DNA from: Heterodontus francisci
Lineage: Eukaryota
Assembly: GCF_036365525.1 (NCBI RefSeq)
Contig: NC_090375.1
Coordinates: forward strand, 46,031,847-46,095,846
Reading direction: 5' to 3'
Length of the DNA: 64,000 nucleotides
The position numbers and the translations under genes are program-made. The notes below the pieces were generated by a model. The model was not told the DNA's origin and did no database searches. It saw only the letters and a program-made list of their open reading frames with translations. Of this stretch, positions 23,555-62,863 are shown one piece after another. Every line of letters begins with the position of its first letter. The stretch's first letter is position 1.

Positions 23555-24158
23555 TCTTTCTTTTGGGCCTCCTTATCTCGAGAGACAATGGATACACGCC
23601 TGGAGGTGGTCAGTGGTTTGTGAAGCAGCACCTGGAGTGGCTATAAAGGCCAATTCTAGAGTGACAGGCCCTTCCACAGGTGCTGCAGAGAAATTTGTTT
23701 GTCGGGGCTGTTACACGGTTGGCTCTCCCCTTGCGCCTCTGTCTTTTTTCCTGCCAACTACTAAGTCTCTTCGACTCGCCACATTTTAGCCGTGTCTTTA
23801 TGGCTGCCCGCCAGCTCTGGCGAACGCTGGCAACTGACTCCCACGACTTGTGATCAATGTCACAGGATTTCATGTCGCGTTTGCAGACGTCTTTAAAGCG
23901 GAGACATGGACGGCCGGTGGGTCTGATACCAGTGGCGAGCTCGCTGTACAATGTGTCTTTGGGGATCCTGCCATCTTCCATGCGGCTCACATGGCCAAGC
24001 CATCTCAAGCGTCGCTGACTCAGTAGTGTGTACAAGCTGGGGGTGTTGGCCGCCTCGAGGACTTGTGTGTTGGAGATACGGTCCTGCCACCTGATGCCAA
24101 GTATTCTCCGGAGGCAGCGAAGATGGAATGAATTGAGACGTCGCTCTTGGCTGACATA
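23555..24158 (-). mobile_element. RTE-clade LINE 3' fragment (BovB/Expander-like C-terminus with C2H2-like motif)
   Basis: RRLRWLGHVSRMEDGRIPK...LYSEL...GRP...FKD...KRD...CSTCGRACHSRIGLYSH; 11-bp TSD TGTTTGTTAAT (23544-23554, 24159-24169). Confidence 0.85.
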
Positions 24159-28243: not shown

Positions 28244-30301
28244 CCGGCAGACCCATTGTTTCAGCCTGTTCCTGCCCCACTGAACTCACTTCTTCCTATT
28301 TTGACTCTATCTTTTCTCCCCTGGTCCAGTCTCTTCCCACCTAAATCCGTGACTTTTCTGACGCCTTACGCCATTTTGACAACTTCCAGTTTCTGGCCTT
28401 AACTGCCTCCTCTTCAATATGGACGTCCAATCTCTCTACACCTCCATCTCCCACCAGGTCGGTTTGAGGGCTCTCCGCTTCTTCCTTGAACAGAGGCCAA
28501 ACCAGTCCCCATTCACCACCACCCTCCTCCACCTGGCTGAACTTGTTCTCACATTGAATAACTTCTCCTTCAACTCCACTCACTTCCTTCAAGTAAAAGG
28601 TGTTGCTATGGGTACCCACATGGGTCCTAGTTATGCCTGTCTTTTTGTGGGATATGTCAAACATTTCTTGTTCCAATCCTATTCAGGCCCCCTCCCCCAA
28701 CTCTTTTTCTGGTACATTGATGACTGTATCGGTGCCGTTTCCTGCTCCCACCCGGAACTAGAAAGCTTTATCAACTTTGCTTCTAATTTCCACCTTTCTC
28801 TCACCTTCACATGGTCCAACTCCGACATTTCCCTTCCCTTCCTCGCCTTCTCTGTCTCCATCTCTGGGGATAGGCTGTCTACTAATATTCATTATAAGCC
28901 CACTGACTCCCACAGCTACCTCGACTACACTTCTTCACACCCTGCCTCCTGTAAGGACTCCATTCCATTGTCCCAGTTTCTCCGTCTCCGATGCATCTGC
29001 TCTGATGATGCAACCTTCCACGACAGCGCTTCTGATATGTCTTCCTTTTTCCTCAACCGAGGATGCCCCCCCCACTGTGGTTGACAGGGCCCTCAACTGT
29101 GTCCGGCCCATTTCCCGCACCTCTACCCTCACCCCTTCCCCTCCCTCCCACAACCGCAACAGGGTTCCCCTTGTCCTCACTTTCCACCCCATCAGCCTCC
29201 AGATCCAAAGGATCATCCTCCGCCATTTCCGCCACAGCCAGCGTGATGCCACTGCCAAATGCATCTTCCCCTTCCTTACCTTGTCAGCATTCCAAAGGGA
29301 TTGTTCCCTCCGCAACACCCTTGTCCACTCCTCCATTACCCCCACCACCTCGTCCCCTTCCCACGGCACCTTCCCCTGCAATCGCAGGAGGTGTAATACC
29401 TGCCCATTTACCTCCTCTCTCCTCACTATCCCAGGCCCCAAACACTCCTTTCAGGTGAAGCAGCGATTTACTTGTACTTCTTTCAATGTAGTATACTGTA
29501 TTCGCTGCTCACAATGTGGTCTCCTCTACATTGGGGAGACCAAACGCCGATTGGGTGACCACTTTGTGGAACACCTCTGCTCAGTCCAAAAACATAAGCC
29601 CAAGCTTCCGGCTGCTTGCCATTTCAAAACTCCCCCCCACTCTCATGCTCACATCTCTGTCCTGGGATTGCTGCAGTGTTCCAGTGAACATCAACGCAAG
29701 CTCGAGGAACAGCATCCCATTCACCGATTAGGCACACTACAGCCTGCCGGACTGAAAATTGAGTTCAATAATTTCAGAGCATGACGGGCCCCCCTTTTTA
29801 TGTTTGGTTTTTTTTCTATTATTCTTCTTTTCTTTGTTCTTTTTTCTTTGGTTATTTTATTTGGTTTTTTTTAAGTGTGTTTAGTTTGTCTCTACTGTGC
29901 CTACCCACTGTTTCTGTTTTTAAATTTAAAAAAAAATGTTTGTGCTTGCAGTGCTTTGTGCCTTGCAGTCTATTCACACCCTCTCTGTACTAATGCTTTG
30001 TCTTTCAGCACACCATTAACATACCATTTGCCTTTGTTCCATGACCTTCTGGTCAGTTATTCTCTATGACCCTCTGTCCTATCAACACCTTCTCTTTTGT
30101 TATCTCTCGCCCCGTCCCCATTTTACTTGCTTAAAATCTTTTACATTTCTAATATTTGTCAATTCTGAAGAAGGGTCACTGACCTGAAACGTTAACTCTT
30201 CTTCTTTCTCCACAGATGCTGCCAGACCTGCTTAGTATTTCCACCATTTCTTGTTTTTATTTCAGATTTCCAGCAGCTGCAGTATTTTGCTTTCATTATT
30301 A
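28244..30301 (+). mobile_element. Penelope-like element (RT + GIY-YIG endonuclease + pseudo-LTR), 5'-truncated, one frameshift
   Basis: MDVQSLYTSI, GVAMGTHMGPSYA, WYIDD, YKPT; CNRRRCNTC...NVVYCIRCSQCGLLYIGETKR...R...H; 7-bp TSD TGGTAAA (28237-28243, 30302-30308). Confidence 0.9.
30161..30197 (+). ncRNA. Minimal type I hammerhead ribozyme motif in a PLE pseudo-LTR
   Basis: AATT-CTGAAGA-AGGGTC-ACT-GACCT-GAAA-CGTT-AACT: CUGANGA and GAAA core, stem II hairpin, palindromic ACGU stem III, GUU cleavage triplet. Confidence 0.65.
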
Positions 30302-31179: not shown

Positions 31180-32405
31180 ATATGAATATACGAACATATG
31201 AATTAGGAGCAGGAGTGGGCCACTTGGCCCTTCGAGCCTGCTTCACCATTCAACAAGATTATGGCAGATCTGATAGTAACCTCAACTCCACATTCCCGCC
31301 TACCCCCAATAACATTTCACTCCCTTGCTTATCAAGAATCTATCTACCTCTGCCTCAAAAATATTCAAAGACTTTGCTTCCACTGCCTTTTGAGGATGAG
31401 ATTTCCAAAAACTCACAACCCTCTCGGAGAAAACTTTTCTCCTCATCTCTGTCTTAAATGGGTGACCCCTTATTTCTAAACAGTGACCCCCTAGTTGTAG
31501 ATTCTCTCACTACAGGAAACATCCTTTCCATATCCACCCTGTCAAGACCCCTCAGGATCTTATATGTTTCAATCAAGTCGCCTCTTACTCTTCTAAACTG
31601 CAGCTGATACAAGCCTAGTCTGTCCAACCTTTCCTCATAAGACATCCCATCCATTCCAGGTATTAGTCTAGTAAACCTTCTCTGAACTGTTTTCAACGCA
31701 TTTACATCCCTCCTTAAATAAGGAGACCAATACTGTACACAGTAGTCCAGATGTGGTCTCACCAATGCCCTCTATAACTTAAGCATAACCTCCGTACTTT
31801 TGGATTCAATTTCTGTCACAATAAACAATAACATTCTATCAGCCTTCCTAATTACTTTCTGAACCTGCATACTAACCTTTTGTGATTCATGCACTAGGAC
31901 ACCCAGATTTCTCTGCATATCACAGCTCTGCAATCTCTCACCATTTGGATAATATGCTTCTTTTTTATTCTTCTTGCCAAAATGGACAATTTCACACTTT
32001 CCCACATTATATTCCATTTGCCAGGTCTTTGCCCACTCACTTAACCTATCTGGATCTTTTTATAGCCCCCTCATGTCCTTTTCACAACTTACTTTCCTAC
32101 CTATCTTTATGTCATCAGCAAATTTAGCATCCATACCTTCAGTGCCTTCATCTAAATCATTTATATAAATTGTTAAAAGTTGAGGCCACAGCACTGATCC
32201 CTGTGGCACACCACTTGTTACATCTTGCCAACCAGAAAATGACCCATTTATGCCTAGTCTCTGCTTCCTGTTAGCTGGCCAATCTTCTATCCATGCCAAA
32301 ATGTTACCCCCTACACCATGAGCTTTTATTTTCTGAAATAACCTTCGATGTGGCACCTTATCAAATGCCTTCTGGAAATCCAGGCACAGTGCATTCACCA
32401 GTTCC
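31180..32405 (-). mobile_element. 5'-truncated CR1 inserted in the Gypsy RT
   Basis: LDFQKAFDKVPH, AKFADD, VRPHLDYC; TSD CCTGAC (31174-31179, 32406-32411). Confidence 0.9.
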
Positions 32406-34341: not shown

Positions 34342-34671
34342 TTAATTTTAGAGATACAGCACTGAAACAGGCCCTTCGGCCCACTGAGTCTGTGCCGACC
34401 AACAACCACCCATTTATACTAATCCTACATTAATCCCATATTCCCTACCACATCCCCACCATTCTCCTACCACCTACCTACACTAGGGGCAATTTACAAT
34501 GTCCAATTTACCTATCAACCTGCAAGTCTTTGGCTGTGGGAGGAAACCGGAGTACCCAGCAGAAACCCATGCAATCACAGGGAGAATTTGCAAACTCCAC
34601 ACAGGCAGTACCCAGAACTGAACCCGGGTCGCTGGAGCTGTGAGGCTGTGGTGCTAACCACTATGCCACCC
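34342..34671 (-). mobile_element. HE1-type SINE
   Basis: Reverse complement of the 10898-11246 element. Confidence 0.9.
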
Positions 34672-34704: not shown

Positions 34705-34837
34705 AAAAGCAAAATACAGCGGATGCTGGAAATCTGAAATAAAAACAAGAAATCCTGGAAATACTCAGCAGGTCTGGCAGCATCTGTGGAGAGAGAAGCA
34801 GAGTTAACGTTTCAGGTCAGTGACCCCTCTTCAGAAC
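34705..34837 (-). mobile_element. Solo PLE pseudo-LTR (133 bp) beginning with a hammerhead motif (34802-34838)
   Basis: Minus strand GTT-CTGAAGA-GGGGTC-ACT-GACCT-GAAA-CGTT-AACT; 11-bp TSD CCAA(C/T)TAATTT (34694-34704, 34838-34848). Confidence 0.75.
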
Positions 34838-35869: not shown

Positions 35870-36395
35870 AAGCACTGACCCCTCTGTCCTCGGACTACTG
35901 CAGTGTTCCAATGAAACTCAACATATGTTTGAGGAATGGCATCTCATCTTTCGATGAGGCACTTTGCAGCCTTCTGGACTCAACATTAAGTACAATTTCA
36001 GATTGTAATCTCTACCCCCATTTCGTTTCCTTTCCTTTGCATGCTTCAGTTTTTCTCGTTTTTGCTTTCAGACAGCAGCACACTTGCTCTCGTCACATCT
36101 TTTGTTTCTTTCTTTCCTTGCCCCATTACCGCTCCCTTTGGCCCTGCACAACTATCTTTTCTGCCATTTAATCTCTCCTGTCTTCCACCCTATCCCATCG
36201 TTCCTTTTTATTCTTTTTCCTTTCCTCCCCTTGTTCAAAACCTATTAATTGCTAATTTTTCCCAGTTCTGATGAAGAGTCATCAACCTGAAATGTTAATT
36301 GTTTCTCTCTCCACAGATGCTGCCAGACCTGCTGGGTATTTCCAACATTTTCTACCTTTATTTCTGATTTTAGCATCTGCGGTATTTTGCTCTTG
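35870..36395 (+). mobile_element. Older PLE 3' end with a degenerate hammerhead (36264-36300)
   Basis: CTGCAGTGTTCCAATGAA...GCAGCCTTCTGGACTCAAC (endonuclease C-terminus); AGTT-CTGATGA...GAAATGTT; CCACAGATGCTGCCAGACCTGCT. Confidence 0.7.
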
Positions 36396-36771: not shown

Positions 36772-37022
36772 TATTTATTTATTTAGAGATACAGCACTGA
36801 AACAGGCCCTTCGGCCCACCGAGTCTGTGCCGACCAACAACCACCCATTTATACTAACCCCACCACCTATTCTCATATTCCCTACCACCTACCTACACTA
36901 GGGGCAATTTACAATGGCCAATTTACCTATCACCTGCAAGTCTTTGGCTGTGGGAGGAAACTGGAGCACCAGGCGGAAACCCACGCGGTCACAGGGAGAA
37001 CTTGCAAACTCCACACAGGCAG
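36772..37022 (-). mobile_element. 5'-truncated HE1-type SINE
   Basis: (TATT)n AGAGATACAGCACTGAAACAGGCCCTTCGG...AAACTCCACACAGGCAG. Confidence 0.9.
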
Positions 37023-37028
37023 AATGTA

Positions 37029-37127
37029 AGTTCCGAAGAAGGGTCACTGACCCGAAACGTTAACTCTGCTTCTCTTTCCACAGATGCTGCCAGACCTGCT
37101 GAGTATTTCCAGCATTTCTTGTTTTTA
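37029..37127 (+). mobile_element. Solo PLE pseudo-LTR with hammerhead motif (core CCGAAGA, U4 replaced by C)
   Basis: AGTT-CCGAAGA-A-GGGTC-ACT-GACCC-GAAA-CGTT-AACT followed by the pLTR tail. Confidence 0.7.
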
Positions 37128-39690
37128 TGCCACAGAATCATGATTGCTGCCAGGTTACCATGCAATGATCTGCATGATATGCTGAATATGATTACACACC
37201 AGCTGAACATTGAGACTGGAATCTCTTTCAGTTGTAGTACATCTCAAAATCAACATGCGGTGCCTGCAAAGCAACATACGTACAGTCTCTGGCATTCTGC
37301 ACCCTGGGGATGCCTGCAATCCTTGTGAAGTTGCGTGCTTGCTCTGCCTGCTTCTCTTTGGCAAGCGAGAATGAAATGCATTTAGTTCTCTTGGAATACA
37401 AATCCTCTCTCTGAGGTTCAATGGAAGAATTACTCCCTGAGCACGCTGGACAGATATGATCTCCTGCTGAGAATACTTCACCCCGTCCTCCTCCAACTAT
37501 TGCATCCATCTCTGAGAGCAAGTGGCTTGTGCAGGATCTTTGAAGTCGGGACTGCAGGATCTTTGGAGTCAGGACTTAGTAGTTCAGTACATGCCACACA
37601 ACTACCTACAAACGTTAGCAACTTTAAACGATGATAGAAAGCAAAAAACACTTGCACAATCCTAATAGTGCTAGTAGGGGGAGGGTGGGGGGTGGGGAGG
37701 TGGTGGTGGGTGGGTGTCCTACCGGCTGCTGAATGCATGTCCAGCTGTGCAGGGTTAAGACAGGGCATGAGCTGGAGTGTTGAGCTCCAAAATGGCAGCA
37801 CAGGCATCGAATCAGGGTTACATGATGATTGACGTCACAATCCACCTACTCTGCATACTTCTGAAGTTGCTCTCCGTGAATCTGCCAACACCCTCACCAA
37901 AACGGCATCGGTCTCAGTGAATACCAGATGTGCATGCAGGTGCCGCACATGCCATTTTGGAGGCAAACAGCACCTGTAGCACTGAAACATCAGGCACTAC
38001 GGAGCTGAATTTCATGATCTAAGGGAGTCTAAAGAAAAATTGACAGGAGCAAATATGCCAGAAATATCAATGAATTTGAGTGTAATTGAGGTTGCAGATG
38101 TGATCTGAAGATCATCTATCAGATAACATTTTCCTGAAAGTGGTGCTATATGAATAATATTCAGATTCTGGGTAGACTTGGGATTTACCTGTTGCTTGGA
38201 GGTAGTATTTGGCACTAAATAATTTCTTCAAGGCTGTTTTAGCAATGGAGGTGATGTGAGGATTTCATTTGAGGATGGAGATCACAGATGAACTGAAATA
38301 TCCTATCTTTATTTTTATACTTGAACTCATACATGTTTTCCTGAATATTCCAATGATTATGGAAGTAGAACAGTATTAAAAATCCTCTTTTGCAACATTT
38401 TTCCAAACTGTATATACTGCCAAGTAACATTTTAAAATATAGTGAACAAGTGTTGAGATGTAGCCACACAAATGAAAATTCTTAAGATTCATTAGCTAGC
38501 CAAGAGGACGAGACACCAAAACCAAAAGCCAAATATCATTAACCACAGATGTGTTATTAATTGAAAGGTGGGTAGAAACTTTGCATAGCTTATACCTCAA
38601 TTATGAAAGAAAATGAAAAAACTGGATGTAGCCTACTACAAAAAAATGAAAAATAAAAGGTAGAAATACTAAGGTGGCTTAGTCCACTGGTGAAATATGA
38701 ATCTAGGCTGTCACTGGATATAGCTGGTTATCTGAAACATGCTTGGATACTGGGTGAAGCAGGTTACTAAAATACTGGTTCCGCACAGGTTGGATATACC
38801 TGCTACGAGTACTTTCCAACAGGTGATCAACTAACTAGTTACCACCGTGCTCTGCCCTCTCTTGTTCTTGTTGCTAGGATTCAGAATAGCTTTTTTAAAA
38901 ATTCGTTTCATGGGATATGGGCATCACTGGCAAGGCCAGCATTAGTTGTCCATCCTAATTGCCCTTGAGAAGATGGTAGTGAGTTGCCTTCTTGAACTGC
39001 TGCAGTCTATCTGGTGCAGATACACCCACAGTTCCTTTAGGGAGGGAGTTCCAAGATTTTGATCCAAAGACAGTGAAGGAACAATGATATATTTCCAAGT
39101 CAGGCTAGTGGTGGCTTGGAGGGGAACTTTCTGATGGTGTTTGCATGCATCTGCTGCCTTTGTCCTTCTAGGTGGAAGAGGTCAGGAGTTTGGAAGGTGC
39201 TGTTGAAAGAGGTGTGGTGAGGGAGCGAACTTTTAAGGTGGTGGATGTGGTGCTGATCAAGTGGGCTGCTTTGTCCTGTTGAATCTCCTGAGAGTTGTTG
39301 GAGATGCACACATCCAGGCAAGTGGAGAGTATTCCATCACACTCCTGACTTGTGCCTTGTCGATAGATGGTGGACAGGCTTTGGGGAGTCAGTGGGTGGG
39401 TTACATGCCACAGAATTCCCACCTTCTGACCTGCTCTTGTAGTATTTATATGGCAGCTCCAATTCAGTTTCTAGTCAATGGTAACCACACCCCCCTCTCC
39501 CCCCAAGGATGCTGATAGTGGGGAAATTCAGTGATGGTAATGCCGTTGAATGTCAAGGGGAGATGGCTAAGATGGTTAGATTCTCTCTTGTTGGGAGATC
39601 GTCATTGCTTGGCACTAGTGTGGCACAAATGTTACTTGCCACTTATCAGCCCAAGCCTGAATGTCATCCAGGTCTTACTGCATATGGACA

Positions 39691-42600
39691 CTTATGAGTG
39701 CTTTTTTTGGGTCAAATTTTGAAGATTTATGATTTGAAACTGAAAAGGAGTCCATGGATTTTTTTTTAACAAGTCACTGAGGTCTGGACTGTAAACAGTT
39801 ACTTAAAGGCACCTGTCTTCAAATAATCACTCAGCAGGGGTTATTTTTGACTTGGGGAAGATGTTTACAGAGATGTTGTTTAGGGAGCATTTGCTGCGAC
39901 TGCTGGATAGGTTTGTCCCGATGAGGCAAGGAAGGGATAGTAGGGTGAAGGAACCTTGGATGACAAGAGATGTGGAACAGCTAGTCAAGAGGAAGAAGGA
40001 AGCTTACTTAAGGTTGAGGAAGCAAGGATCAGACAGGGCTCTAGAGGGTTACAAGGTAGCCAGGAAGGAACTGAAGAATGGACTTAGGAGAGCTGGAAGG
40101 GGACATGAAAAAGTCTTGGCGGGTAGGATTAAGGAAAATCCCAAGGCGTTCTACACTTATGTGAGGAACAAGACGATGGCCAGAGTGAGGGTAGGGCTGA
40201 TCAGGGATAGTGGAGGGAACTTGTGCCTGGAGTCGGAGGAGGTAGGGGAGGTCCGAAATGAATACTTTGCTTAAGTATTCACTAGTGAGAGGGACCTGGT
40301 CGTTTGTGAGGACAGCGTGGAACAGGCTGATATGCTCGAACAGGTTGATGTTAAGAGGGAGGATGTGCTGGAAATTTTGAATGACATGAGGACAGATAAG
40401 TCCCCGGGGCCAGACGGGATATACCCAAGGATATTAAGGGAAGCGAGGGAAGAGATTGCTGCGTCTTTGGCGATGATGTTTGCGTCCTCACTGTCCACTG
40501 GGGTAGTACTGGATGATTGGAGGGTGGCAAATGTTATTCCCTTGTTCAAGAAAGGCAATAGGGATAACCCTGGGAATTATAGACCAGTCAGTCTTACGTC
40601 GGTAGTGGGCAAATTATTGGAGAGGATTCCGAGAGACAGGATTTATGATTATTTGGAAAAGCATAGTTTGATTAGAGACAGTCAGCATGGCTTTGTGAGG
40701 GGCAGGGCATGCCTCACAAGCCTTATTGAATTCTTTGAAGATGTGACATAACACGTTGATGAAGAAAGAGCAGTGGATGTGGTGTATATGGATTTTAGCA
40801 AGGCGTTTGATAAGGTTCCCCATGGTAGGCTCATTCAGAAAGTAAGGATGCATGGGATGCAGGGTAAGTTGGCTGTCTGGATACAGAATTGGCTGGCCCA
40901 TAGAAGACAGAGGGTGGTAGCAGATGGAAAGTATTCAGCCTGGAGCTCGGTGATCAGTGGTGTTCCGCAGGGATCTGTTCTGGGACCTCTGCTCTTTGTG
41001 ATTTTTATAAATGACTTGGATGAGGAAGTGGAAGGCTGGGTTAGCAAGTTTGCCGATGACACAAAGGTTGCTGGAGTTGTGGATAGTGTGGAAGGTTGTT
41101 GTAGGTTGCAACGGGACATTGACAGGATGCAGAGCTGGGCTGAGAAGTGGCAGATGGAGTTCAACCTGGAAAAGTGTGAAGTGATTCATTTTGGAAGGTC
41201 GAATTTGAATGCAGAGAATACAGGCTTAAAGACAGGATTCTTGGTAGTGTGGAGGAACAGAGGGATCTTGGGGTCCATGTCCATAGATCGCTCAAAGTTG
41301 CCACCCAAGTTGATAGGGTTGTTAAGAAGGCGTATGGTGTGTTGGCTTTCATTAACAGGGGGATTGAGTTTCAGAACCGTGAGGTTATGCTGCAGCTCTA
41401 TAAAGCCCTGGTTAGACCACACTTGGAATATTGTCTTCAGTTCTGGTCGCCTCATTATAGGAAGGATGTGGAAGCTTTAGAGAGGGTGCAGAGGAGATTT
41501 ACCAGGATGCTGCCTGGACTGGAGGGCATGTCTTACGAAGAAAGGTTGAGGGTGCTAGGGCTTTTCTCATTGGAACGAAGAAGGATGAGAGGTGACTTGA
41601 TAGAGGGGTACAAGATGATGAGAGGCATAGATAGAGTGGATAGCCAAAGACTTTTTCCCAGGGCGGAAAGGGCTATCACCAGGGGCCATAATTTTAATGT
41701 GACTGGAGGAAGGTTTCGGGGAGATGTCAGAGGTAGGTTCTTTACACAGAGTGGTGGGTGCGTGGAATGCACTGCCAGTGGTGGTGGTAGAAGCAGATAC
41801 ATTAGGGACATTTAAGCGACTCTTGGATAGGTACATGGATGATAGTAGAATGAAGGGTATGTAGGTAGTTTGATCTTAGAGTAGGTTAAAGGTTCGACAC
41901 AACATCGTGGGCCTAACGGCCTGTACTGTGCTGTACTGTTCTATGTTCTAAGTGACAGGTCAAGATTTATAGAGGTCAGGAGGCTTTATTCGTGACACTG
42001 TTTATGGTTTTGCCTTGGAAAGTGAGTTAGGATATGGACAATGGTTTGAAAAAAACAGTTGGAGAAAACTTGCCAAGAGAAAAACCCCACCTCAGTCTGT
42101 CCCAGCTCTTTGAAAAAGCATGCTAGTTATCCATCTCGAGAAACTGAGAAGCAAATGTAAGAAACTGCCTGAAACCTGATATTGTATTTTCCCTTGAAAC
42201 CCTGCCCAAACTGATCTTCAACGTTGCCTGACAATAACTGTTCTAGGAAGATCCTAGTGACAACCGGCTATACACATTTGGGATTCCAAACCAAAAAGGA
42301 CATCTGAAATCTTTTCATATCTTTTTTTTTCTTCAAGAATTAGCAAGTATTTTTGGCCAACATTTTTTTTTTGTTTTTTTGCACTAGAGCTCTAAAGAGT
42401 TAACTGGTGTATGTGTGTCTGAGGGGCTAAGGTAAAAAGGGAACTTTTATATTTCGATCTGTGTTTGTGCTTTGTTTCATTACTGGTTAAGACTTATTTA
42501 ATTTTGTTGTTTATTAAAGAAACCTGGTTGGTGTGTTTTATGTGGGGAAAGTGGAAACAAGTTACTGAGTTGGATGATCAGCCATGATCATAATGAATGG

Positions 42601-42782
42601 CGGAGCAGGCTCAAAGGGCCGAATGGCCTACTCCTGCTCCTATTTTCTATGTTTCTATTCTGGGATTAAAAAAACTCTGATAGACTGTATCGGTAAGTGG
42701 GAAAAAACTTAAATATATGTTGTGACCTGTGGAGATGTGGATCTAGACTAAACCATGCACTCCTCCCACCTTGGTCGTAACA
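39691..42782 (+). mobile_element. Solo LTR of the Gmr1-like family (about 900 bp net), containing a 2.1-kb CR1 and a ~115-bp CR1 tail (about 42541-42657)
   Basis: Ends CTCCTCCCACCTTGGTCGTAACA like 34014; shares TTTATTAAAGAAACCTGGTTGGTG; 5' terminus eroded (TTATGAG); flanks ACAC/ACAT. Confidence 0.75.
39875..41950 (+). mobile_element. Young 5'-truncated CR1/HER1-type LINE
   Basis: RT ORF pieces near-identical to the 51568-53637 copy; tail CTGTACTGTGCTGTACTGTTCTATGTTCTA. Confidence 0.92.
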
Positions 42783-45184
42783 ACATGGACTGCTTCAGTA
42801 TCTGAAGAGTTCCAAAAGGTACTGAATATGGTACAATCATCAGCAAACATCCCCATTTCTGACCTTATGATGGAGTGACGGTCATTGATGAAGCAGCTGA
42901 AGATGGTTGGGCCTAGTTCTGGATATCAAAGACGTGCAAGCTCTCTACATAGGTCCTGAGCCTCATAAGGTGGGCAAGTCTGTGTGTTTGCATTCAGCTT
43001 GTAACTTTCCAATTAGATGTTAATCTCTCTTGGGCACTTCTTGAAGTGAATTAGAAGATAATTATTTCTCTGCAGATTGGCAATTGCTTGTAAGTTGTTG
43101 GCTCCTCCCCAAGGTCAGAAAAAAATAGGAAACTCATCTTCCTCTTGAAGAAATGTGTAGTGGTCTTAAAACTATTGTTTGTTATCCTGAGCTCAAAATA
43201 AAGGCAAAGAAATGCAGGGAAGCTGTGGTAATGTGGCTTTAAACTAGCTTCCTTTCAGTAAATTTGCAACATTAATACTGCTGAGATTTCCCCTTATTCA
43301 CCATTCATCTAGAAATAAACATAATTCATAATTTATCCCTTAGCAACAAAGCTCCCAATCCAATTCCATCCTCGATCAAAGAGATTTCACCAACCGTTAA
43401 ATTCACTTAATTACAGTGTTCTCCAAATTTCATACTTAATCACTATATACCAATATAATCATTATTTTTCAAAACAACAGTTACTCATCATAGTAGAAAA
43501 GGACAACCATTTCACTTGTATGTAGCACAATACGTCTATTTATTCAGTGTGCGGGGGCAGTTAGTATCTGACAATATGATGTACATTGCTGAAGTATTCA
43601 CAGATGAGAAAGAACACACGAGCTGGAAACCTTAATTAACAGCAAAAAAGTGTTAATGCTGCAGATACTGGATCAGCAAACATTATCTCACATGAATTGA
43701 TTTTTACATTGCAACCGGCATTTGTTACTTGTGGTACGAAAAAGACTGTCTCTAGGGGCAAAACAGGCAATAGTTGTCAGGTACAACATAATACAAGAAG
43801 GTAGCAGTCTGTGTTTGTGAGAAACAAAGTGTGAATGAACTGTCAGCCAATTTGAACCCTTCCCATTTTCCTGGAGGAGCATCAACCATTGATTCAGGAC
43901 AGATTCCCAGTGCTAATAGTGACTCATTGGGAGCTCACCATTCATTGAGAGGAGAATCAAGTGCTGCAGCAGCATTTCATTTGACACAGCTGCATAAAAT
44001 AGAGAGTCTCCTGTTGTATTCCAAAAATTAAGATGGACAGGTACTGGAAGATGAGTCTAGACAAAAATTACTTGTTAGAAAATTAATTGTTCAAAGTCTT
44101 GAACTTCTATGATACTTGGCCCCTGTCCCCAGAAGATGGAACACTTCTTGAATACCAGCATTTCCCCTCCAGAGACAGATCTTGGGCAAAAATGGGAGTA
44201 AATGGCATGGAGACCCAAGTTCTGCTCACTCAATATCATTTATATTCAACAATGTGATCAATAGGAACGTGGCATGATCTATCCAAAAGAGAGTGCGGTC
44301 AAATTCTGGTGATCTTTATCATGAACAAGGATTCAAAGAAGATTTCAAGCCTCATTTACTTGTATTACATGATATGGTACCACATGAAAATAGGCAGTAT
44401 TCAGAAGGAAAATCTAGGTCAAGTTTAACTACACGTGTTCTACTTTGCTCCAATTTTAAAAAATCCTCTTTATGATTTGAGTTTCTATAAGATTTATATT
44501 AACTTTGCATGTCAGTATCTGAAAATGGAGATGGGTTTGATTTCCTACTTTATTGGTTTCCTGTCTCCGCAGTGTTGCATAGAGAGATGGAGATTGGAGA
44601 CAATTTTTTTTGAGACAGGGAGGGAAAATTATAATTGGCATCTATGCTTTTACACACTAAGAACAACACTGATGAAAGTCAGTTACTCCTTCAGCTGCAA
44701 TTGGCAAGTGGCTTGTTTGTGAAGCTGGTCTAAAGCGAAGTATACAAAACTAAACTTTAGGAAATAATGAATTTCACTTCTCAGTTGTCAGCTGCCATCA
44801 ACTCACATGATTAATAGTCTGCAGCGTACTATTACTCTAGTGCTGGCTATTGCCAGGCAAAGCTCAGACTACACATATATCATCAAAGGACATGTACTAT
44901 CATCAGTCTGATGTTGAAACATGAGGGGTTTAACAAGATGCTGAAAACAGAAGGTCAGCTTCCAAAACTACAAAGAAACAGACCTCTGCAGCTTCTCAAT
45001 TAGTGCCACAATTAGAACATTCATTACACCAATATGCTGTATAAATACTAAGGATCCACAAAAGGCCCACAGTGCATGAGCTCATCTCCATTGTTGCATC
45101 TGAGCACCAAATACACCGTCCCATACACATTTTCTCTTGCATGCGTCTGAATCAAGATCCAATTCACTATCTCATTTTTTCCCA

Positions 45185-45700: not shown

Positions 45701-46689
45701 TAATAATAGAATGGAACTACTCCAAGAAATACTCCATGATTAATACTGTTTTCTACTTTCAATTTTGATTACTGTGCTGCACCATGTGCCTAGTTTTTAC
45801 ACCTAGGTTTTGTAATGCAAAAAAAAACTCTTGGCTGTACATTATTAGATGATTGCTGCTGGAGAAAATAAGGAGAGAGAGAGACTTGGCACCAAGGCAA
45901 GAAGGAGATAAAGATAGGATGAGCAAATCCTGTCAGTACAGTGAGCTTAATTCAATGAATGGCCATTTCTCATTCCTAACTTACTACATTATTTGCGACA
46001 ATACATAACAGAAACTCAATACATTTTAGATTTCTCGTTTTAATTTTAATCTCCTTTATTGTTAGCAGATATGTATGCACGTTTGTAATTAAAACACTAT
46101 TCATCCAGATCTGCTCACCTGTAATAACTTTCCGTTTCTACTTCAAAAGAAGCAAATATATGGTGGGAACCAAAATGCTATTGTATCAATTGGTTTCTAA
46201 GTTTGTTGCAACTTGTAAAATTATTTTTATAAAATTAATAAACAGAAAAGAACCAGTGAAGAGTGAGAAATGAGATTCAATAATGCAAAACGCATGAACT
46301 GCTTTAATAAAAGTTAGATTTACAGATATATTTACAATTTTACAATCTTCACAGTTTCAATTTATACATAGAAGTCAAAATGAAGTAGGATGTTCATTTC
46401 TGTAAGGTGACTGCCATTCTACGGACTGCTGTGTTTCTTGGCTTCATTTTAACCAGCGGTAGGTCAAAACCACAATCTCCTGTTGAAGGACAAATAATGA
46501 TCTTTATTTCTGGTACATTTTTTAGTTCTTAAACTGAAGCTTTCACCAACTTGAAAACATTCAGTGCCTATTCTAAAATCCATTCAGGTATTCTATTTAC
46601 TTGGCATTGGAATCCCCAAGAAAAACATTCATAGCTTGTATAAAATTACTGCTGGATGCATGATTCACATCTGACTTAAAACACAAAAT

Positions 46690-47745
46690 TTCTTGGGATA
46701 TGAAAGTTGCTGGTTAGGCCCGCATTTATTTCCCATCCCTAGTTATCCTGAGAAAGTAGTGGAGTGAGCCTTCTTCAAGGCAGGGAGGAGATAAAGATAG
46801 GATAAGCAAATCCTGTCAGTACAGTGTGCTTGATACAACTGAGAGGCTTGCTTTGCCAAATATGAGAGCAGTTAACAATCAACCATGTTGATGTGGGGTT
46901 GGAGTCACATATCAGCCAGGCCAGGTAAGGGGAGCATGTTTCCTTTCCAAAAGGACATATTATGAACAAATTGGACTTTGACGACAATCTGACAGTTTCA
47001 TGGTCACTTTTACTGATATCAGGTTATTTCCAGATGTTTTTAAAAAACTGAATTTGAACTCATGGGGCATAAATTTTGATTTTGTGCAATAGTGTAAAAC
47101 ATCTGATAGCCACTCGGCTGCCCATAGAAAACACAGAAAAATAGGAGCAGGAGTAGGCCATTCGGCCCTTCGAGCCTGCTCCACCATTCAATACGATCAA
47201 GGCTGATTATCCAAACTCAGTAACCTGCTCCCGCTTTCTCCCCATATCCCTTGATCCCATTAGCCCTAAGAACTCTAACGTTTTCTTGAATATATTTAAT
47301 GATTTGGCCTCAACTGCTTTCCGTGGTAGAGAATTCCACAAGTTCACCACTCTCTGGGTGAAGAAATCTATCCTCATCTCGGTCCTAAATGGCTTACCCC
47401 TTATCCTTAGACTGTGACCCCTGGTCCTGGGCTCCCCCACCATCGGGAACATCCTTCCTGCATCTAGTCGGTCCAGTTCTGTTAGAATTTTGTTACATTT
47501 CACTCAATTTTAACTTCAATCGAAATATAAATTGGCAGAGATTCAAGCAGAGACACGATAGACCAAATGGCCTCCTTTTGTGTTGTAAATATTTCTATGT
47601 TTATTTCTTTCTATGTAAAACAGGCTGCCGAATCACTTTCGTCGCTTCACGCTATCGCACAATGCTAAGATCTGCCCCGCGTTCTCTAGATTATTAGCCC
47701 AGGCCTCTGGATTACTCATCCACTAACAGCCACTACACTACTATA
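46690..47745 (-). mobile_element. Old short derivative of the tRNA-headed LINE (tail, 5' body to about 47062, head at about 47680-47745), interrupted by a CR1 tail at 47124-47490
   Basis: GCATTTATTTCCCATCCCTAG tail, GATACAACTGAG...GGAGTCACAT...CCAGGTAAGG...AAAGGACAT body, CTCTGGATTACTCATCCA head. Linking the head piece to the rest is inference. Confidence 0.6.
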
Positions 47746-50160: not shown

Positions 50161-50465
50161 AGAACAACTTTCATTTATGTAGCATTTTACACATCCTCAA
50201 GTTGTGTCAAAGCACTTCACAAGGAAGTCACCAGCACACCAAAAGAGCTCCCTACTCTCCTTCAAATAGTGCCATGGGATCTTTTACATTCACCTGAACA
50301 GGCAGACAATAACTTGGTTTAAAATCTCATCTGAGATATTGTACCCCTGAAAATGCAATGTGTACTACAATGAAATATCAGCCTAGATTAAATGCTCAAA
50401 TCCTGAAGCAGGGCTTGAGCACACAACCTTTTAACTTAGATGAGAATGCTACGACTGGGCCAGCT
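50161..50465 (-). mobile_element. Deu-domain SINE remnant
   Basis: CAAATAGTGCCATGGGATCTTTTAC...GTTTAAAATCTCATCTGA...TCAGCCTAGATT; L2-type tail. Confidence 0.55.
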
Positions 50466-51567
50466 AACAACCTGCATAAATTTTAGGTGCAGATTCTATA
50501 TCAGAACCTTCAGAAAAAACCTCACCCTGTAGATTCTCTTTTCAGATGCTGATGGAACTGTTGTGCATTTCTGGAGTTTTCTGTTCGTTCCAAAATTCCA
50601 GTTTTATTTTTAGCTCTATAGTTTATTTCTTCCTTCCTCTAGAAAGGGTCTGAGCTCACTTAGCACTTGTCCAGGATAGCACTTTTTAAAATAAAAGGCT
50701 TACTATGGTAAATGTAAAGCACAGACTACCTCTGTGATGCTAGGTGTTGGAGCATTGCTGATAATCATGATTACCATCCTTGATAAAAAGTTAGGAAATA
50801 ATCGTACTATACAAGGAACTTATAAATGGCCAAACTCCTCATTATGGGAACATAATCCTCTGGATGCTATACATTGACCTGAAAATACAGTTAACGTTAA
50901 TTTCACCTCAGTCTTAATTGTCATAGTTAATACTTTAATCATCCCCATTCTTGTGATTCAAAAGGGATCATCAAACATGACATTTTCATTTTGTGTACTC
51001 AGTTCTGCTGAGAGCTGATTTGAGAGTAAGGCAGTTGTTTTGCTATACTGCTACGTATTGCTACATTGCAGCATTTCTACATTAAGAACATTCAGTAACT
51101 GAAATACATGGCCCAGATATTTACATAACACTGATATTCAGCATTCAGAGATTTAACAGATGAATCATTCAATCATCTTACAAACGACATATTTAGGTGG
51201 TAATGAGCCACATTGACCAGAAAGATCTACTTCTAATTTGTGCTGAGTTAATTGATCTGAGTCAGAAATTACATTACAATCATCAACATTACTGGGCTGG
51301 CATGGGGAAAAACTTTAGTGATGAATGGAAACTGGCCTGTCAAATAATTCCTGATGGAAGGTGCATGTCTGCATATGGACTTAGGTAGTGGCATGATTGA
51401 GACTGAATAAAATGCCCACTTCCCCATTAAAATGTATGTAACTCCCATGGAATTGACGGATGAGCTTCAGTTGTTGGGATGGGTTTTCACTATCTACATT
51501 CAGACATGAAGAATGGCTCCTTAAAGTACAAATAGCCTGGTGTATCCAAACACCTGTACACAAGAAT

Positions 51568-54500
51568 GAACATAGAACAGTACAGCACTGTACAGGCCCT
51601 TCGGCCCACGATGTTGTGTCGAACCTTCAACCTACTCTAAGATCAAACTAACTACCTACCCTTCATTCTACTATCATCCATGTACCTATCCAAGAGTCGC
51701 TTAAATGTCCGTAATGTATCTGCTTCTACTACCACCGCTGGCAGCGCATTCCACGCACCCACCACTGTGTAAAGAACCTACCTCTGACATCTCCCCGAAA
51801 CCTTCCTCCAATCACCTTAAAATTATGCCCCCTGGTGATAGCCCTTTCCGCCCTGGGAAAAAGTCTTTGGCTATCCACTCTATCTATGCCTCTCATCATC
51901 TTGTACCCCTCTATCAAGTTACCTCTCATCCTTCTTCGCTCCAATGAGAAAAGCCCTAGCTCCCTCAAACTTTCTTTTTAGGACATGCCCTCCAGTCCAG
52001 GCAGCATCCTGGTAAATCTCCTCTGCACCCTCTCTAAAGCTTCCACATCCTTCCTATAATGAGGTGACCAGAACTGAACACAATATTCCAAGTGTGGTCT
52101 AACCAGGGCCTTATAGAGCTGCAGCATAACCTCACGGTTCTGAAACTCAATCCCCCTGTTAATGAAAGCCAACACACCATACGCCTTCTTAACAACCCTA
52201 TCAACTTGGGTGGCAACTTTGAGCGATCTATGGACATGGACCCCAAGATCCCTCTGTTCCTCCACACTACCAAGAATCCTGTCTTTAAGCCTGTATTCCA
52301 CATTCAAATTCGACCTTCCAAAATGAATCACTTCACACTTTTCCAGGTTGAACTCCATCTGCCACTTCTCAGCCCAGATCTGCATCCTGTCAATGTCCCG
52401 TTGCAACCTACAACAGCCTTCCACACTATCCACAACTCAAGCAACCTTCGTGTCATCGGCAAACTTGCTAACCCAGCCTTCCACTTCCTCATCCAAGTCA
52501 TTTATAAAAATCACAAAGAGCAGAGGTCCCAGAACAGATCCTTGTGGAACACCACGGGTCACCGAGCTCCATGCTAAATACTTTCCATCTACTACCACCC
52601 TCTGACTTCTATGGGCCAGCCAATTTTGTTTCCAGACAGCCAATATTCCCTGAATCCCATGCCTCCTTACTTTCTGAATGAGCCTACCACGGGGAACCTT
52701 ATCAAACGCCTTGCTAAATTCCATATACACCACATCCACTGCTCTTCCTTCATCAATGTGTTTTGTCACATCTTCAAAGAATTCAATAAGGCTTGTGAGG
52801 CATGACCTGCCCCTCACAAAGCCATGCTGACTGTCTCTAATCAAACTATGCTTTTCCAAATAATCATAACTCCTGTGTCTCAGAATCCTCTCCAATAATT
52901 TGCCCACTACCGACGTAAGACTGACTGGTCTATAATTCCCAGGGTTATCCCTATTCCCTTTCTTGAATAAGGGAACAACATTTGCCACCCTCCAATCATC
53001 CAGTACTACTCCAGTGGACAGTGAAGATGCAAAGATCATCGCCAAAGGCGCGGCAATCTCTTCCCTCACTTCCCGTAATATCATTGGGTATATCCCGTCT
53101 GGCCCCGGGGACCTATCTGTCCTCATATCATTCAAAATTTCCAGCACATCCTCCCTCTTAACATCAACCTGTTCGAGCATATCAGCCTGTTCCACGCTGT
53201 CCTCACAAACGATCAGGTCCCTCTCACTAGTGAATACTGAAGCAAAGTATTCATTTAGGACCTCCCCTACCTCCTCCGACTCCAGGCACAAGTTCCCTCC
53301 ACTATCCCTGATTGGCCCTACCCTCACTCTGGCCATCCTCTTGTTCCTCACATAAGTGTAGAACGCCTTGGGATTTTCCTTAATCCTACCCGCCAAGACT
53401 TCTTCATGTCCCCTTCCAGCTCTCCTAAGTCCATTCTTCAGTTCCTTCTTGGCTACCTTGTAACCGTCTAGAGCCCTGCCTGATCCTTACTTCCTCAACC
53501 TTAAGTAAGCTTCCTTCTTCCTCTTGACTAGCTGTTCCACATCTCTTGTCATCCAAGGTTCCTTCACCCTACCATTCCTTCCCTGCCTCATCGGGACAAA
53601 CCTATCCAGCAGTCGCAGCAAGAGCTCCCTAAACAACCTCCACATTTCTGTCGTGCATTTCCCTGAGAACATCTGTTTCCAATTTATGCTCCCCAGTTCC
53701 TGCCTAATAGCATTGTAATTCCCCCTTCCCCCAATTAAATATTTTCCCATCCTGTCTGCTCCTGTCCCTCTCTATGACTATAGTAAAGGTCAGGGAGTTG
53801 TGATCACTATCACCGAAATGCTCTCCCACCGAGAGATCTGCCACCTGGCCTGGTTCGTTGCCAAGCACCAAGTCCAACATAGTCTCCCCTCTAGTCGGCC
53901 TATCTACATATTGAGTCAGGAAACCTTCCTGGACACACCTGACAAAAACTGCTCCATCCAAACTATTTGCACTAAGGAGGTTCCAATCAATATTAGGGAA
54001 GTTGAAGTCACCCATGATAACAACCCTGTTACTTCTGCACCTTTCCAAAATCTGCCTCCCAATCTGTTCCTCCATGTCTCTGTTGCTATTGGGGGGTCTA
54101 TAGAAAACTCCCAACAAAGTGACTGCTCCTTTCCGGTTTCTGACTTCCACCCATAATGACTCAGTAGACAAACCCTCCTCGACGACCTCCCTTTCTGCAG
54201 CTGTGATACTATCCCTGATTAACAATGCCACTCTCCCACCTCTTTTACCTCCCTCCCTATTCCTTTTGAAACATCTAAACCCCGGAACATCCACCATCCA
54301 TTCCTGCCCCTGTGATATCCACGTCTCCGTAACGGCCACAACATCGTAGCTCCAAGTACTGATGCATGCTCTAAGTTCATCACCCTTATTCCTGACACTT
54401 CTTGCGTTAAAATAGACACACTTCAACCCATTATACTGGTTGCAACTTTGCCCTGTCAACTGTCTAACCTTCCTCACAGACTCTCTGCACTCGGTATCTG

Positions 54501-58396: not shown

Positions 58397-60062
58397 TATA
58401 CGAATATATGAATTATGAGCATGAGTAGGCCACTCAGCCCCGAGAGCCTGTTCCGCCATTCAATAAGGTCATGGCTGATCTGATTGTAACCTCAACTCCA
58501 CATTCCCGCCTACCCCCATTACCCTTTCACCCCCTTGCTTATCAAGAACCTATCTACTTCTGCTTCCACTGCTTCTGAGGAAGAGAGTTCCAAAGACTCG
58601 CAACTGTCAGAGAATAAATTTCTCCTCATCTTGGTCTTAAATGGGCGACCCCTTATTTTAAACACTGACCCCCTAGGGCTGAATTTTACCGACCCCGATA
58701 TGGGTTGTGGAGAGGTGCACTGGAAAATGCCTCCGTAAGAGGCCCTGCCCCATATAACCTGTGGCGGCAAGGCCTTGTGGCGGCCCCGCCGCTGCTTGGT
58801 GACAGCAGACACATTTAAATATGGCAATCAATGTAAATTAATGAATTAGTTGGTGTTGCTGTCCGTTCACTCCGATTTTGCGGACATCGGTCGGCTTCCT
58901 GCGCTGTCCGATCTCGGACCAGTGATGGATGGTGGAACACTGGTAGGGAGTGGGGGGAGGAACTAAGAATGTCAGTGCGGGAGGAGAGGAGTGCGATCAA
59001 ACTTACCTGATTGATCTAGGGGGTGATGGGAAGGGGTAAAGTTAAAAGTTTCTGACCTTTGGGGGTGGGGGGGGAAGGTCAGGTACATAAGGTGAGTATT
59101 TTCTGTGGGGGGGGGGGTGAGGGAAGAGGGCAAGGGTTGAAATGTAAGTTTATTGGAGAGGTGGGAGAGGGGCTGGGAACATTAATTTAATAATTTGTAA
59201 TAAACTTTAAAGCAATGTGCCTTTAAAACTTGAAATGTAAGAGCTGGAAGCCCTTTGAAAATGGTGCCGGACGCCGTTGCCGGAGCACTCGCCCCCTCTA
59301 CGTCATCGTGTGGGGGGCAATCCGCCCTGGCTATGTAAATGAGCCGCTGCATATATTGGCGGCGAGCTAGTGAAATTCAGCCCCGAGTTCTAGATTCTCC
59401 CACAAGAGGAAACATCCTTTCCACATCGACCCTGCCAAAACCCCTTAGAATCTTATATGTTTCAATCATGTCACCTCTTACTCTCTAAACCTAGCCTGTC
59501 TAGCCTTTCCTCATAAGACAACCCGCCTATTCCAGTTAGTAGTCTAGTAGACTTTCTCTAAACTGCTTCCAACGCATTTACATCCTTCCTTAAATAAGGA
59601 GACCAATACTGTACACAGTACTCCAGATGTGGTCTCACCAATGACCTGTAAAGCTGAAGCTTTTGTATTCAATTCCCCTCACAATAAACAATAACATTCT
59701 TTTAGCTTTCCTAATTTCTTGCTGTACCTGCATACTAACATTTTGTGATTCATGCACTAGGGACACCCAGATCCCTCTGCATCTCACAGCTATGCAATCT
59801 CTCACCATTTAGATAATATGCTTCTTTTTAATTTTTCCTGCCAAAATAGACAATTTCACATTTTCCCACATTATACTTCATTTGCTAAATCTTTGCCCAC
59901 TCACTTAACCTACCTATATCCCTTTGTAGCCTCATGTCCTCTTCACAACTTACTTTCCTACCTATCTTTGTGTCATCAGCAAATTTAGCAACCATACTTT
60001 TGGTCCCTTCATCCAAACCATTTATATAAATTGTAAAAAGTTGAGGCCTCAGCACTGATCCC
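58397..60062 (-). mobile_element. 5'-truncated CR1 (with MITE insertion), in the KHDRBS3 last intron
   Basis: GSVLRPQLFTIYINGLDEG...AKFADD; same subfamily as 31180-32405 and 60172-62017. Confidence 0.85.
58676..59383. mobile_element. PIF/Harbinger-like MITE (708 bp)
   Basis: TIRs GGGCTGAATTTTAC / GTGAAATTCAGCCC; 3-bp TSD CTA/CGA. Removing it restores CR1 GACCCCCTAGTTCTAGATTC. Confidence 0.8.
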
Positions 60063-60171: not shown

Positions 60172-62017
60172 ATAGGTAACTACAGGGCAGTTGGCTTAAC
60201 ATCAGTCATAGGGAAAATGAAAGAAGCTATTATTGAAGACATTATAGCAGGGCACTTAGAAAAACTCAAGGTAATTGGGCAGAGTCAACATGGTTTTGTG
60301 AAAGGGAAATTCCTTGTTTAACCAATTTATTGGAGTTCTTTGAAGTAACATGTGCTGTGGATAAAGGGGAACCGGTGGATGTACTGTACTTAGATTTTCC
60401 AGAAGGCATTTGATAATGTGCCGCATCAAAGGTTGTTGTGGAAAATAAAAGCTCATGGTGTAGGGGTTAACATTTGGCATGGACAGAAGATTGGCTGGCT
60501 AACAGGAAACAAAGAGTAGGATAAATGGGTCATTTTCTGGTTGGAAAAATTTAACGAGTGGTGTGCCACAGGGATCAGTGCTGGGGCCTCAACTTTTTAG
60601 AGTTTATATTAACAACTTAGATGAAGAAACCGAAGATATGGTTGCTAAATTTGTTGATGGCACAAAGATAGGTAGGAAAGTAAGTTGTGAAGAGGACATA
60701 AGGAGGCTACAAAGGGATATAGGTAGGTTAAGTGATTGGGTAAAGATCTGGCAAATGGAGTATAATGTGGGAAAATGTGAAATGGTCCATTTTGGCAGGA
60801 AGAAAATAAAGAAGCATATTATCTAAATGGTGAGAGAATGCAGAGCTGTGAGATGCAGAGAGATCTGATTGTCCTACTGCATGAATCGCAAAAGGTTAGT
60901 ATGCAGGTACAGCAATTAATTGGGAATGCTAATAGAATGTTATTGTTTATTGCGAGGGGAATTGAATACAAAAGTAGGGAGGATATGCTTCAGTTATACA
61001 GGGCATTGGTGAGAGCACATCTGGAGTACTGTGTACAGAATTGGTCTCCTTCTTTAAGGAAGGATGTAAATGCATTGGAAGCAATCCAGAGAAGGTTTAC
61101 TAGACTTTACTACCTGGAATGGGCAGGTTGTCTTATGAGGAAAGGTTGGAAAAGCTAGGCTTATATCTGTTGGAATTTAGAAGAGTAAGAGGCGACTTGA
61201 TTGAAACATATAAGATTCTGAGGGGTCTTGACAGGGTGGATGTGGAAAGGATGTTTCCTCTTGTGGGAGAATCTGGAACTAGGGGTCACTGTTTAAAAAT
61301 AAGCGGTCACTCATTTAAGACAGAGATGAGGAGAAATTCTTTCTCTCAGAGGGTCGTGAGTCTTTGGAACTCTTCCTCAAAAGGCAGTCTTTGAATATTT
61401 TTAAGGCACAGATAGATTTTTTTTTATTTGTCTTATGTGGGATGTGGGCATCACTGGCTAGGCCAGCATTTATTGCCCATCCCTAATTGCCCTTGAACTA
61501 AGTGGCTTGCTCGGCCATTTCAGAGGGCATTTAAGAGTCAACCACATTGCTGTGGGTCTGGAGTCACATGTTGGCCAGACCAGGTAAGGACGGCAGATTT
61601 CCTTCCCTAAAAGGACATTAGTGAACCAGATGGGTTTTTACAACAATTGACAATGGTTTCATAGTCACCATTCAGAGAATCATTACAGCGCAGGAGGCCA
61701 TTCAGCCCATCGTGTCCGCACTGGCTCTCTGAAAGAGCAACTCCCTCATTACTTGTAATTCCAGATTTATTAATTTAGTTCAAATTTCAACATCTGTCGT
61801 GGTGGGATTTGAAGCCATATCCGCATAGCCTGGGCTCTGGATTATGAGTCAAGTGATATTACCACTTTGCCACCACCTCTTGACAAGCAAGGGGGTGAAA
61901 GAGTATTGGGAGTAGGCAGGAATATGGAGTTGAGGTTACAATCAGATCAGCCATGATCTTATTGAATGGCGGAGCTCAAGAGGCTGAGTGGCCAACTCCT
62001 GCTCTTATGTTCCTATG
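60172..62017 (+). mobile_element. 5'-truncated CR1 interrupted by a SINE
   Basis: GNYRAVGLTSVIGK, QGSVLGP, AKFVDG, LVRAHLEYC; resumes at about 61879 through the tail CTCTTATGTTCCTATG. Confidence 0.88.
61417..61878 (-). mobile_element. Bipartite tRNA-derived SINE: 5' ~340 nt of the tRNA-headed LINE fused to its last ~70 nt (with a small CR1 tail at about 61675-61745)
   Basis: Minus strand: GAGGTGGTGGCAAAGTGG head, the same body as 10190-10425, then GCCACTTAGTT|CAAGGGCAATTAGGGATGGGCAATAAATGCTGGCC and poly(A). Confidence 0.85.
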
Positions 62018-62050
62018 TACTTGCTACCTGTGAGGACAAGGAGAAAGACT

Positions 62051-62863
62051 GGGCTAAATTTTATGTTGCCGTTGTAACAATTGGTGCTGGCCATAAAAAT
62101 TGGCGGTCTGCACGTGCGCGTTTTAGTCTGCGGAGCCGGTGCGATATTATACGCAGCGGCTCATTTAAATGGCTGGGACGGACTGCCCCCCCCCCCCACC
62201 CGATTATGTGGAGGGGGTGGGTGAGCTCTTCCTGGCAACGGTGTCTGTTGCCACTGCGCAGGTGCCATTTTTAAAGGCCTTCCAGCCCTTACATTTAATT
62301 TACATGTTTAAAGGTAAAGTTAAATAAAACTGATTAAAAAAAATTAAATACATATTTCCAGCCCCTCTCCCACCCCCGCCCCATTAACAATACACTCATT
62401 TCTTGCCCTCCCCCCACAAAGTTCACAAACTTTTAACGTTACCCCTTCCCAAAATCCCCTCCACCAATCAGAATAGTTCGACCCCGCTCCCCCCACACTG
62501 AGAAACTTACCTCCTTCCCCCCTCCCCACAGGTGTTGCGCCTCGTCTCCCCAGACGGGGATCCGAAGGCGCGGCAGTGCCGGCCACTGGGATAAAGATTG
62601 CGGCAGTACTTCAGGAAGTGACAGTAACGTCATTAATTCAGGTAAGTTAATGAATTTGAATACTTAAAATACGGTTCCTTCGCAGTGCATGGTGCGGGGG
62701 GGGGGGGGGGGGGGGGGGGGTGGGGGGGAAAAGAGGACGGGGGACCCGCCACAAGGCCTCAAGATCGGGACCGTTGCAGGCCTTTTCCGGGGCAATCTTC
62801 ATGCCCCCCCCCCCCACCCCCCGCCATGGATCCCGATCTTGAGGCCTCTATAAAATCCAGCCC
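62051..62863. mobile_element. PIF/Harbinger-like MITE (813 bp)
   Basis: TIRs GGGCTAAATTTTAT / ATAAAATCCAGCCC; perfect 3-bp TSD ACT (62048-62050, 62864-62866). Confidence 0.8.

Follow-up and report, generated by a model that had tools for sequence, protein, structure and literature searches.

Bipartite derivatives of LINEs that lack an ORF are described, in the part of PMC5786205 available to us, only from the RTE, Ingi, Vingi and R2 clades, with a small-RNA head added later, and the same part of that paper treats internal deletion as an established origin of non-autonomous LINEs in other clades. Bov-A and Bov-tA (with BovB), RIME (with Ingi) and the derivatives of Vingi and R2 all consist of the 5' and 3' parts of a LINE brought together by internal deletion, and all are mobilised in trans; as far as these systems are described in the accessible text, their LINEs are without a tRNA head. 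SacSINE1 and LmeSINE1 of cartilaginous fishes combine a tRNA head, a conserved body and a LINE-derived tail (L2-2_CM; PMC5499810), and the portion of that paper available to us reports only the tail as common with the LINE. CR1-Zenon LINEs mobilise SINEs as well, among them ZenoSINE (PMC6685494) and the bivalve SINEs (PMC11481361), which in the accessible text share only 3' tails with their LINEs, and CR1-Zenon-like LINEs have been named in the whale shark in the available part of 10.1101/443036. The origin and function of the bodies in the middle of SINEs have been called enigmatic (PMC5786205), and three untested models for them are given in the portion we have of PMC5499810.

The window analysed here, a stretch of 64,000 nucleotides, contains a SINE (SINE1) that belongs to a real SINE family, and its head, body and tail each correspond to a part of one tRNA-headed LINE, itself abundant. 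It differs from the SacSINE1 type in its head and in being without a Deu motif, and from the CR1-Zenon-mobilised SINEs in sharing head, body and tail with its partner. As judged from sequence, what is new in comparison with the known bipartite systems is that the LINE itself appears already to bear the tRNA-like head together with the body. This would extend bipartite derivatives past the four clades reported in 2018. Since all three parts of the SINE map onto one abundant LINE, the job of the body, whether as a promoter, in the translation of uncapped RNA or in loading of the reverse transcriptase (RT), becomes testable in an autonomous element. No LINE with a tRNA head common to its SINE was found in the literature searched, which lacked most subscription papers; both families may already be named in Repbase or Dfam, and we judge novelty from papers alone.

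The SINE and its partner LINE

SINE1 lies at 61417-61878 on the minus strand and consists of a tRNA-like head, a spacer, a body, a LINE tail and poly(A); it is 462 nt long as annotated and about 390 nt after subtraction of a nested piece. The earlier note had matched it to positions of about 10086-10425 of the LINE followed by a jump to the LINE end. BLAST recovers this match as three blocks, corresponding to the head (61878-61748 against 10088-10226, 107/139 or 77% identical, E 7e-25), the body (61662-61496 against 10260-10425, 156/167 or 93%, E 2e-69) and the tail (61496-61438 against 12460-12518, 54/59 or 92%, E 5e-20). However, the match is discontinuous, because the 3' end of a CR1 (61677-61746, minus strand; about 70 nt, 78% identical by BLAST to 16990-17062) is nested between the head and the body. 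By eye, this piece resembles the CR1 tails printed in the supplement of PMC7245038. The junction itself is as previously described, with one T common to both sides, so that it can be read as 10424->12460 or as 10425->12461. The head is far less similar to the LINE than the body is (Fisher p 5e-5), and the difference holds on ungapped columns (head 103/127, p 8e-4).

The body of SINE1 occupies 61496-61662 and the tail 61417-61496, both on the minus strand; the tail carries the LINE's last codons and 3' UTR, from 12460 onward, with a stem-loop (fold z -2.17) and poly(A). The element thus has a LINE-derived tail matching over 59 nt and an A-rich end, is non-coding and is repeated, as expected of a SINE, and it is bipartite in that its 5' and 3' parts both match one autonomous-type LINE. 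On either side lies a CR1 in plus orientation (5' flank 60188-61416, 3' flank 61879-62018). An intact CR1 copy found at about 31250-31420 aligns with the two flanks alike, the scores being 85 and 120 where the maxima of 300 shuffles were 28 and 35, and 0-4 host bases are left over between them. Since the flanks are collinear with a single CR1, SINE1 inserted as a unit, which agrees with the earlier reading; no target-site duplication is visible around SINE1 when the flanks are aligned to the intact copy.

The partner LINE is represented in the window by a decayed copy on the plus strand (LINE1, 10086-12535) with a head, a body, an endonuclease, an RT and a short 3' UTR. Its tRNA-like head (10086-10178) has an A box at 10094-10104 and a B box at 10158-10167, and its body, in the 5' UTR (10260-10425), ends in a small hairpin on the 3' side. 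Between head and body there is a short tandem duplication at 10242-10268. A segment found only in the LINE (10426-10897) encodes a basic stretch and an APE endonuclease (Pfam PF03372, E 1.9e-5), and the RT, together with the C-terminal portion of the ORF (Pfam PF00078, E 3e-15), extends over 11306-12473, with the stop codon at 12471-12473, so that the tail of the SINE begins, at 12460, within the last codons of the LINE ORF. LINE1 is broken twice: a different tRNA-headed SINE has inserted on the plus strand at about 10898-11245, and some 1.2 kb have been lost at 11305/11306; the size of the family is about 3.3 kb, or 3,290 nt when counted piecewise.

There is apparently one long ORF, and no space for an ORF1 was seen between the LINE1 body and the endonuclease. 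The 3' end of the body contains two ATGs that share the endonuclease frame, one at 10391 and one, in a strong context, at 10403. A further ATG, at 10458, is out of frame, and LINE1 has stop codons at 10409 and 10502. An APE endonuclease and an RT in one element make this an autonomous-type LINE, of which the copies in the window are broken. Full-length protein relatives are 962-983 aa long and 38-42% identical, and the protein is of neither the RTE nor the CR1 type present in the window; a tree of 14 rows places the RT outside the branch of the window's CR1s (95/97), its own group being weak (61/57). We take its C-terminal motif to resemble that of Zenon. Protein searches for longer relatives returned one match each, a metagenome search one locus at 35% and the ESM Atlas unnamed clusters only, and searches of viral contigs (by protein and motif) and of prokaryote genomes (by motif) gave nothing useful.

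Two further copies lie on the minus strand, and LINE copies in the window are 79-90% identical to LINE1. LINE2 (19964-23555) supplies the segment missing from LINE1, is interrupted by a CR1 and is headless, starting within a few bases of the body end, which could mark either a headless class or a truncation hot spot. A 5'-truncated RTE (24169-23555, minus strand) with an 11-nt target duplication is inserted in the first bases of LINE2, and neither head nor body was found upstream of it (a score of 24 against a shuffle mean of 26.9). At its 3' end (19964-20120), LINE2 is inverted at about 20120 and then lost. LINE3 (38891-42916) is made up of 3' fragments of the same family at 38891-39683 and 42783-42916. 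Only LINE1 among the three carries a head.

The head of SINE1 (61795-61879, minus strand) has an A box at 61872-61862 and a B-box-like element at 61815-61806, so that both boxes are present in the heads of both elements. The predicted fold of either head has an acceptor-like stem and a D-arm-like hairpin, and it is on this cloverleaf-like fold and the A and B boxes that their putative tRNA origin rests. ARAGORN found no tRNA; the Rfam tRNA model scored 12.3 bits on the SINE1 head (E 5.3, below the gathering score of 29) and did not match the LINE1 head.

A second, older copy of the SINE (SINE2, 46690-47125, minus strand; 75% identical) has the same body, a spacer that differs from that of SINE1 and a longer tail, starting at about 12432. 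A local duplicate of 63 nt (90% identical, 45893-45955 and 46776-46838) lies at its joint and masks it. SINE2 is more decayed than the LINE copies of the window are, and the SINE form may therefore be old.

Recurrence of the junction and of the LINE 5' region

Of 24 public sequencing runs, four were mapped on window positions 10000-12600 at 85% likeness. They derive from three organisms, X21 and X1 from organism A, X5 from B and X7 from C; X21 consists of raw reads of at most 144 nt from a capture library, and the other three are contigs. The figures for joints come from the 15 joints that were listed out of 10,912. The earlier note would have been undermined by a junction unique to this locus, but the joint 10424->12460 is present in all four runs and all three organisms, with 730 reads at 179 starts in X21 and with contigs in X1 (9), X5 (10) and X7 (9). 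Joints at 10418-10426 sum to 1,122 reads in X21, and slight differences in the reading of a single event may account for all of them. Two others are distinct. The joint 10389->12460 has 62 reads and occurs in all four runs, and the joint 10438->12393 has 54 reads at 39 starts and two contigs in X1, and is not among the joints listed for X5 or X7. The latter retains 13 bases of the LINE past the body and 67 additional bases of the ORF, and because it keeps extra LINE bases on both sides it is not derivable from SINE1 by deletion. Loose ends at 10274 in X1, X5 and X7 reveal an abundant SINE2-like spacer. To judge by loose ends at 10258 in X5 and X7, the duplication at 10242-10268 may be absent from other copies.

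The 5' region of LINE1 likewise recurs elsewhere, as the earlier note needed it to, in read depths, in a contig of X7 and in three whale-shark gene models. Depth in X21 is 9,006 reads at 10390 and 4,778 at 10431, with about 2,300-2,600 reads over the head at 10116-10157, and reads resembling the LINE1 head are abundant in all three organisms. About 1,240 X21 reads show a listed joint to the tail, and there is no loose end at 10420-10435 among the six strongest, of which the smallest listed has 3,566 reads. If every body read came from a SINE, one would expect joints several times as numerous, or a big loose end near 10425, so that the body reads probably do not all come from SINEs. Most long LINE copies probably carry the 5' region, a reading drawn from the depth of a library made by capture, some of whose reads may be duplicates, such as the approximately 1,150 reads ending at 10551.

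Neither the reads, of no more than 144 nt, nor the contigs, which are short, can span from the head to the ORF, and LINE1 itself is the sole record that does; the X7 contig aligns at 10284-10448, only 23 letters beyond the junction. Among 152 fetched proteins, 26 are at least 55% identical to the LINE endonuclease, and seven of these include its start. Three of the seven, the whale-shark gene models P0004, P0005 and P0013, begin with the translated body, and P0005 runs straight across the junction position; two of the others start at the LINE's own ATG and two have unrelated starts. The whale-shark homologues suggest that the window comes from a shark. The linkage that the whale-shark models display is of body to ORF, not of head to ORF, and predicted introns may join the two. 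A search with the reading frame of the body found one protein, which reads as a SINE-type joint and not as a LINE.

Origin of the SINE and transcription of the LINE

The sharing of head, body and tail between the SINE and the LINE, already proposed in the earlier note, is borne out at the level of the families. We suggest, with somewhat more confidence than doubt, that the best explanation as a whole is a deletion lineage from a tRNA-headed shark LINE. A LINE of about 3.3 kb with an APE endonuclease and an RT would start with a tRNA-like internal promoter and a conserved body of 165 nt, and an internal deletion of its coding middle would at one stroke leave head, body and 3' stem-loop, and with them a complete SINE. 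Pol III would transcribe the deleted form from the A and B boxes, and the LINE protein would copy it by recognising the common tail. SINE1, which sits in a CR1 and contains the 3' fragment of another CR1, would then be one copy of this lineage. Such a route to the birth of a SINE would be a single step, with no template switch onto a tRNA needed.

For the direction alone, from LINE to SINE, we consider the odds to be moderately favourable, since the joint 10438->12393 has LINE bases on both sides, as nested deletions leave. The earlier proposal that the SINE arose by deletion from the LINE is accordingly only half sustained: this joint tilts the balance toward deletion, but the divergence of the SINE1 head, much greater than that of the body and tail, means that SINE1 is no plain deletion of the present LINE lineage. 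The difference of the heads implies long separate evolution or an exchange of heads after the birth of the SINE. The disparity between 77% identity in the head and 93% in the body, the decay of SINE2 and the headless LINE2 all count against a deletion origin.

How the LINE itself is transcribed is a separate matter. The head may act as a Pol III promoter for the LINE itself. Since an RNA made by Pol III would carry no cap, the body may have a part in translating such RNA or in its RNP loading. If the LINE is indeed driven by Pol III, the body of a SINE, along with its head, would here be traced directly to a functional LINE leader; in either event, Pol III transcription of a coding retrotransposon has been made directly testable. 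The fullest version of the proposal, a coding LINE transcribed by Pol III from a tRNA-derived promoter, with a body that aids uncapped translation and with repeated births of SINEs by single deletions in sharks, we put forward as tentative and, taken as a whole, rather improbable.

Pol III terminates at T-runs. The sense strand of the LINE has one TTTT run in 3,290 nt. Shuffling of its bases gives 5.2 (P 0.026), and the number expected is 5.6 if codons are used equally (P 0.007) and 2.8 with the codon use of the family itself (P 0.2); dinucleotide shuffles show no deficit. CR1 copies have 3.4-4.1 runs per kb, about ten times the frequency in the LINE, and an RTE fragment has none in 606 nt. 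The scarcity of TTTT is compatible with transcription of the LINE by Pol III and may lend it weak support, but it is not proof. The head could instead be a passenger, in which case Pol II or read-through would supply the LINE transcript and Pol III would serve the SINE alone. We regard this as quite possible, at somewhat less than even chances, and it would fit either direction of origin. It draws on the deficit of T-runs being non-significant against the dinucleotide and own-codon expectations, on the in-frame ATG at 10403 and on the view, held in the available part of PMC5786205, that LINEs are Pol II transcripts, whereas the intact A and B boxes of LINE1, the abundance of such heads in the reads of three organisms and the rarity of T-runs relative to CR1 speak against it.

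A role of the body in cis had been suggested as well. Its retention and its higher identity suggest such a role and may point to a candidate element, but no structure emerged: the fold of LINE1 10086-10460 is no better than shuffles (z -0.51), and only one of 47 predicted pairs had a two-sided change, in a comparison of just three body copies. A gapped motif of 16 bases occurs in both bodies (10312-10327, plus; 61594-61609, minus). It resembles the core of the conserved RTE 5'-UTR domain as printed in the portion of PMC5786205 available, and since the pattern was devised after both sequences had been seen, homology with the RTE domain is a lead only.

The history could also have run the other way. 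An older SINE with head, body and tail would have existed first, a template switch would have moved its head and body onto the 5' end of the LINE, and the chimera would have been amplified; some SINE junctions may later have been regenerated from the chimera. SINE2, only 75% identical and with a different spacer, would suit such a capture, as would the abundance of the SINE2-like spacer at the 10274 loose ends, the heads differing more than the bodies and the start of LINE2 at the body end, and the exchange of modules among SINEs is common according to the accessible part of PMC4824008. In contrast, the 10438->12393 form and the longer tail of SINE2 are expected from deletions, although a long ancestral SINE could also explain them, and the link of body to ORF is already present in the whale shark. 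We therefore consider capture unlikely, while giving it appreciable weight, and prefer the deletion lineage.

That LINE1 is a one-off, either a chance chimera or a SINE adjoining a headless LINE, with only the tail truly shared, is in keeping with a head on one of the three LINE copies of the window, but it is largely refuted by the read depths, the joint counts, the 10438 joint, the X7 contig and the three whale-shark gene models, and is very improbable. The identification of SINE1 with the known shark Deu-SINE SacSINE1, to which a shark genome, a tRNA-like head and a like length (463 nt, against 462 for SINE1 including the nested piece) might invite, we reject almost entirely, since the Deu core printed in the supplement of PMC7245038 differs from SINE1, as do by eye positions 2-78 of the SacSINE1 head in the accessible supplement of PMC5786205, and neither of two printed Deu motifs, at up to 3 mismatches, matches the SINE1 body or the heads of SINE1 and LINE1.

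Other repeats in the window

A separate Deu-like SINE, decayed and on the minus strand, lies at about 50170-50470; by eye, its head agrees with the one printed for SacSINE1 and its core with the printed Deu core, and one Deu motif matches within it, at 50272-50286. It is unrelated to SINE1: compared with SINE1 and with the LINE head, it scored no better than chance, with 21 and 20 where shuffle means were 23.6 and 23.3. Searches with a single printed motif for each of Meta, UCON3 and CORE, allowing up to 3 mismatches and hence of limited power as a test, found none in SINE1 or the LINE head, and four of five words taken from SINE1 are absent from the supplement of PMC5786205.

The SINE inserted in LINE1 at 10898-11245, which is presumably HE1-like, is found by read mapping in great abundance in organism A and hardly at all in B and C, and it aligns to SINE1 with a weak score of 34, which 4 of 300 shuffles reached. 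Relatives of it lie at 34347-34669 and 36774-37022. Rfam gave ten weak matches over the whole window, none of them on SINE1, and the miRNA matches among them are accounted for by MITE-like inverted repeats that form hairpins and are 85-98% alike (6941-7101, 24554-24612, 30181-30290, 34709-34818, 36285-36390 and 37049-37128). A GC-rich repeat occurs twice in opposite orientation, at 58936-59355 and 62148-62536, with 69-75% identity. Two CR1 copies, at 39872-41948 and 51568-53640, are likewise in opposite orientation and are 95.8% identical over 2,077 nt, and their family is, by this likeness, evidently young.
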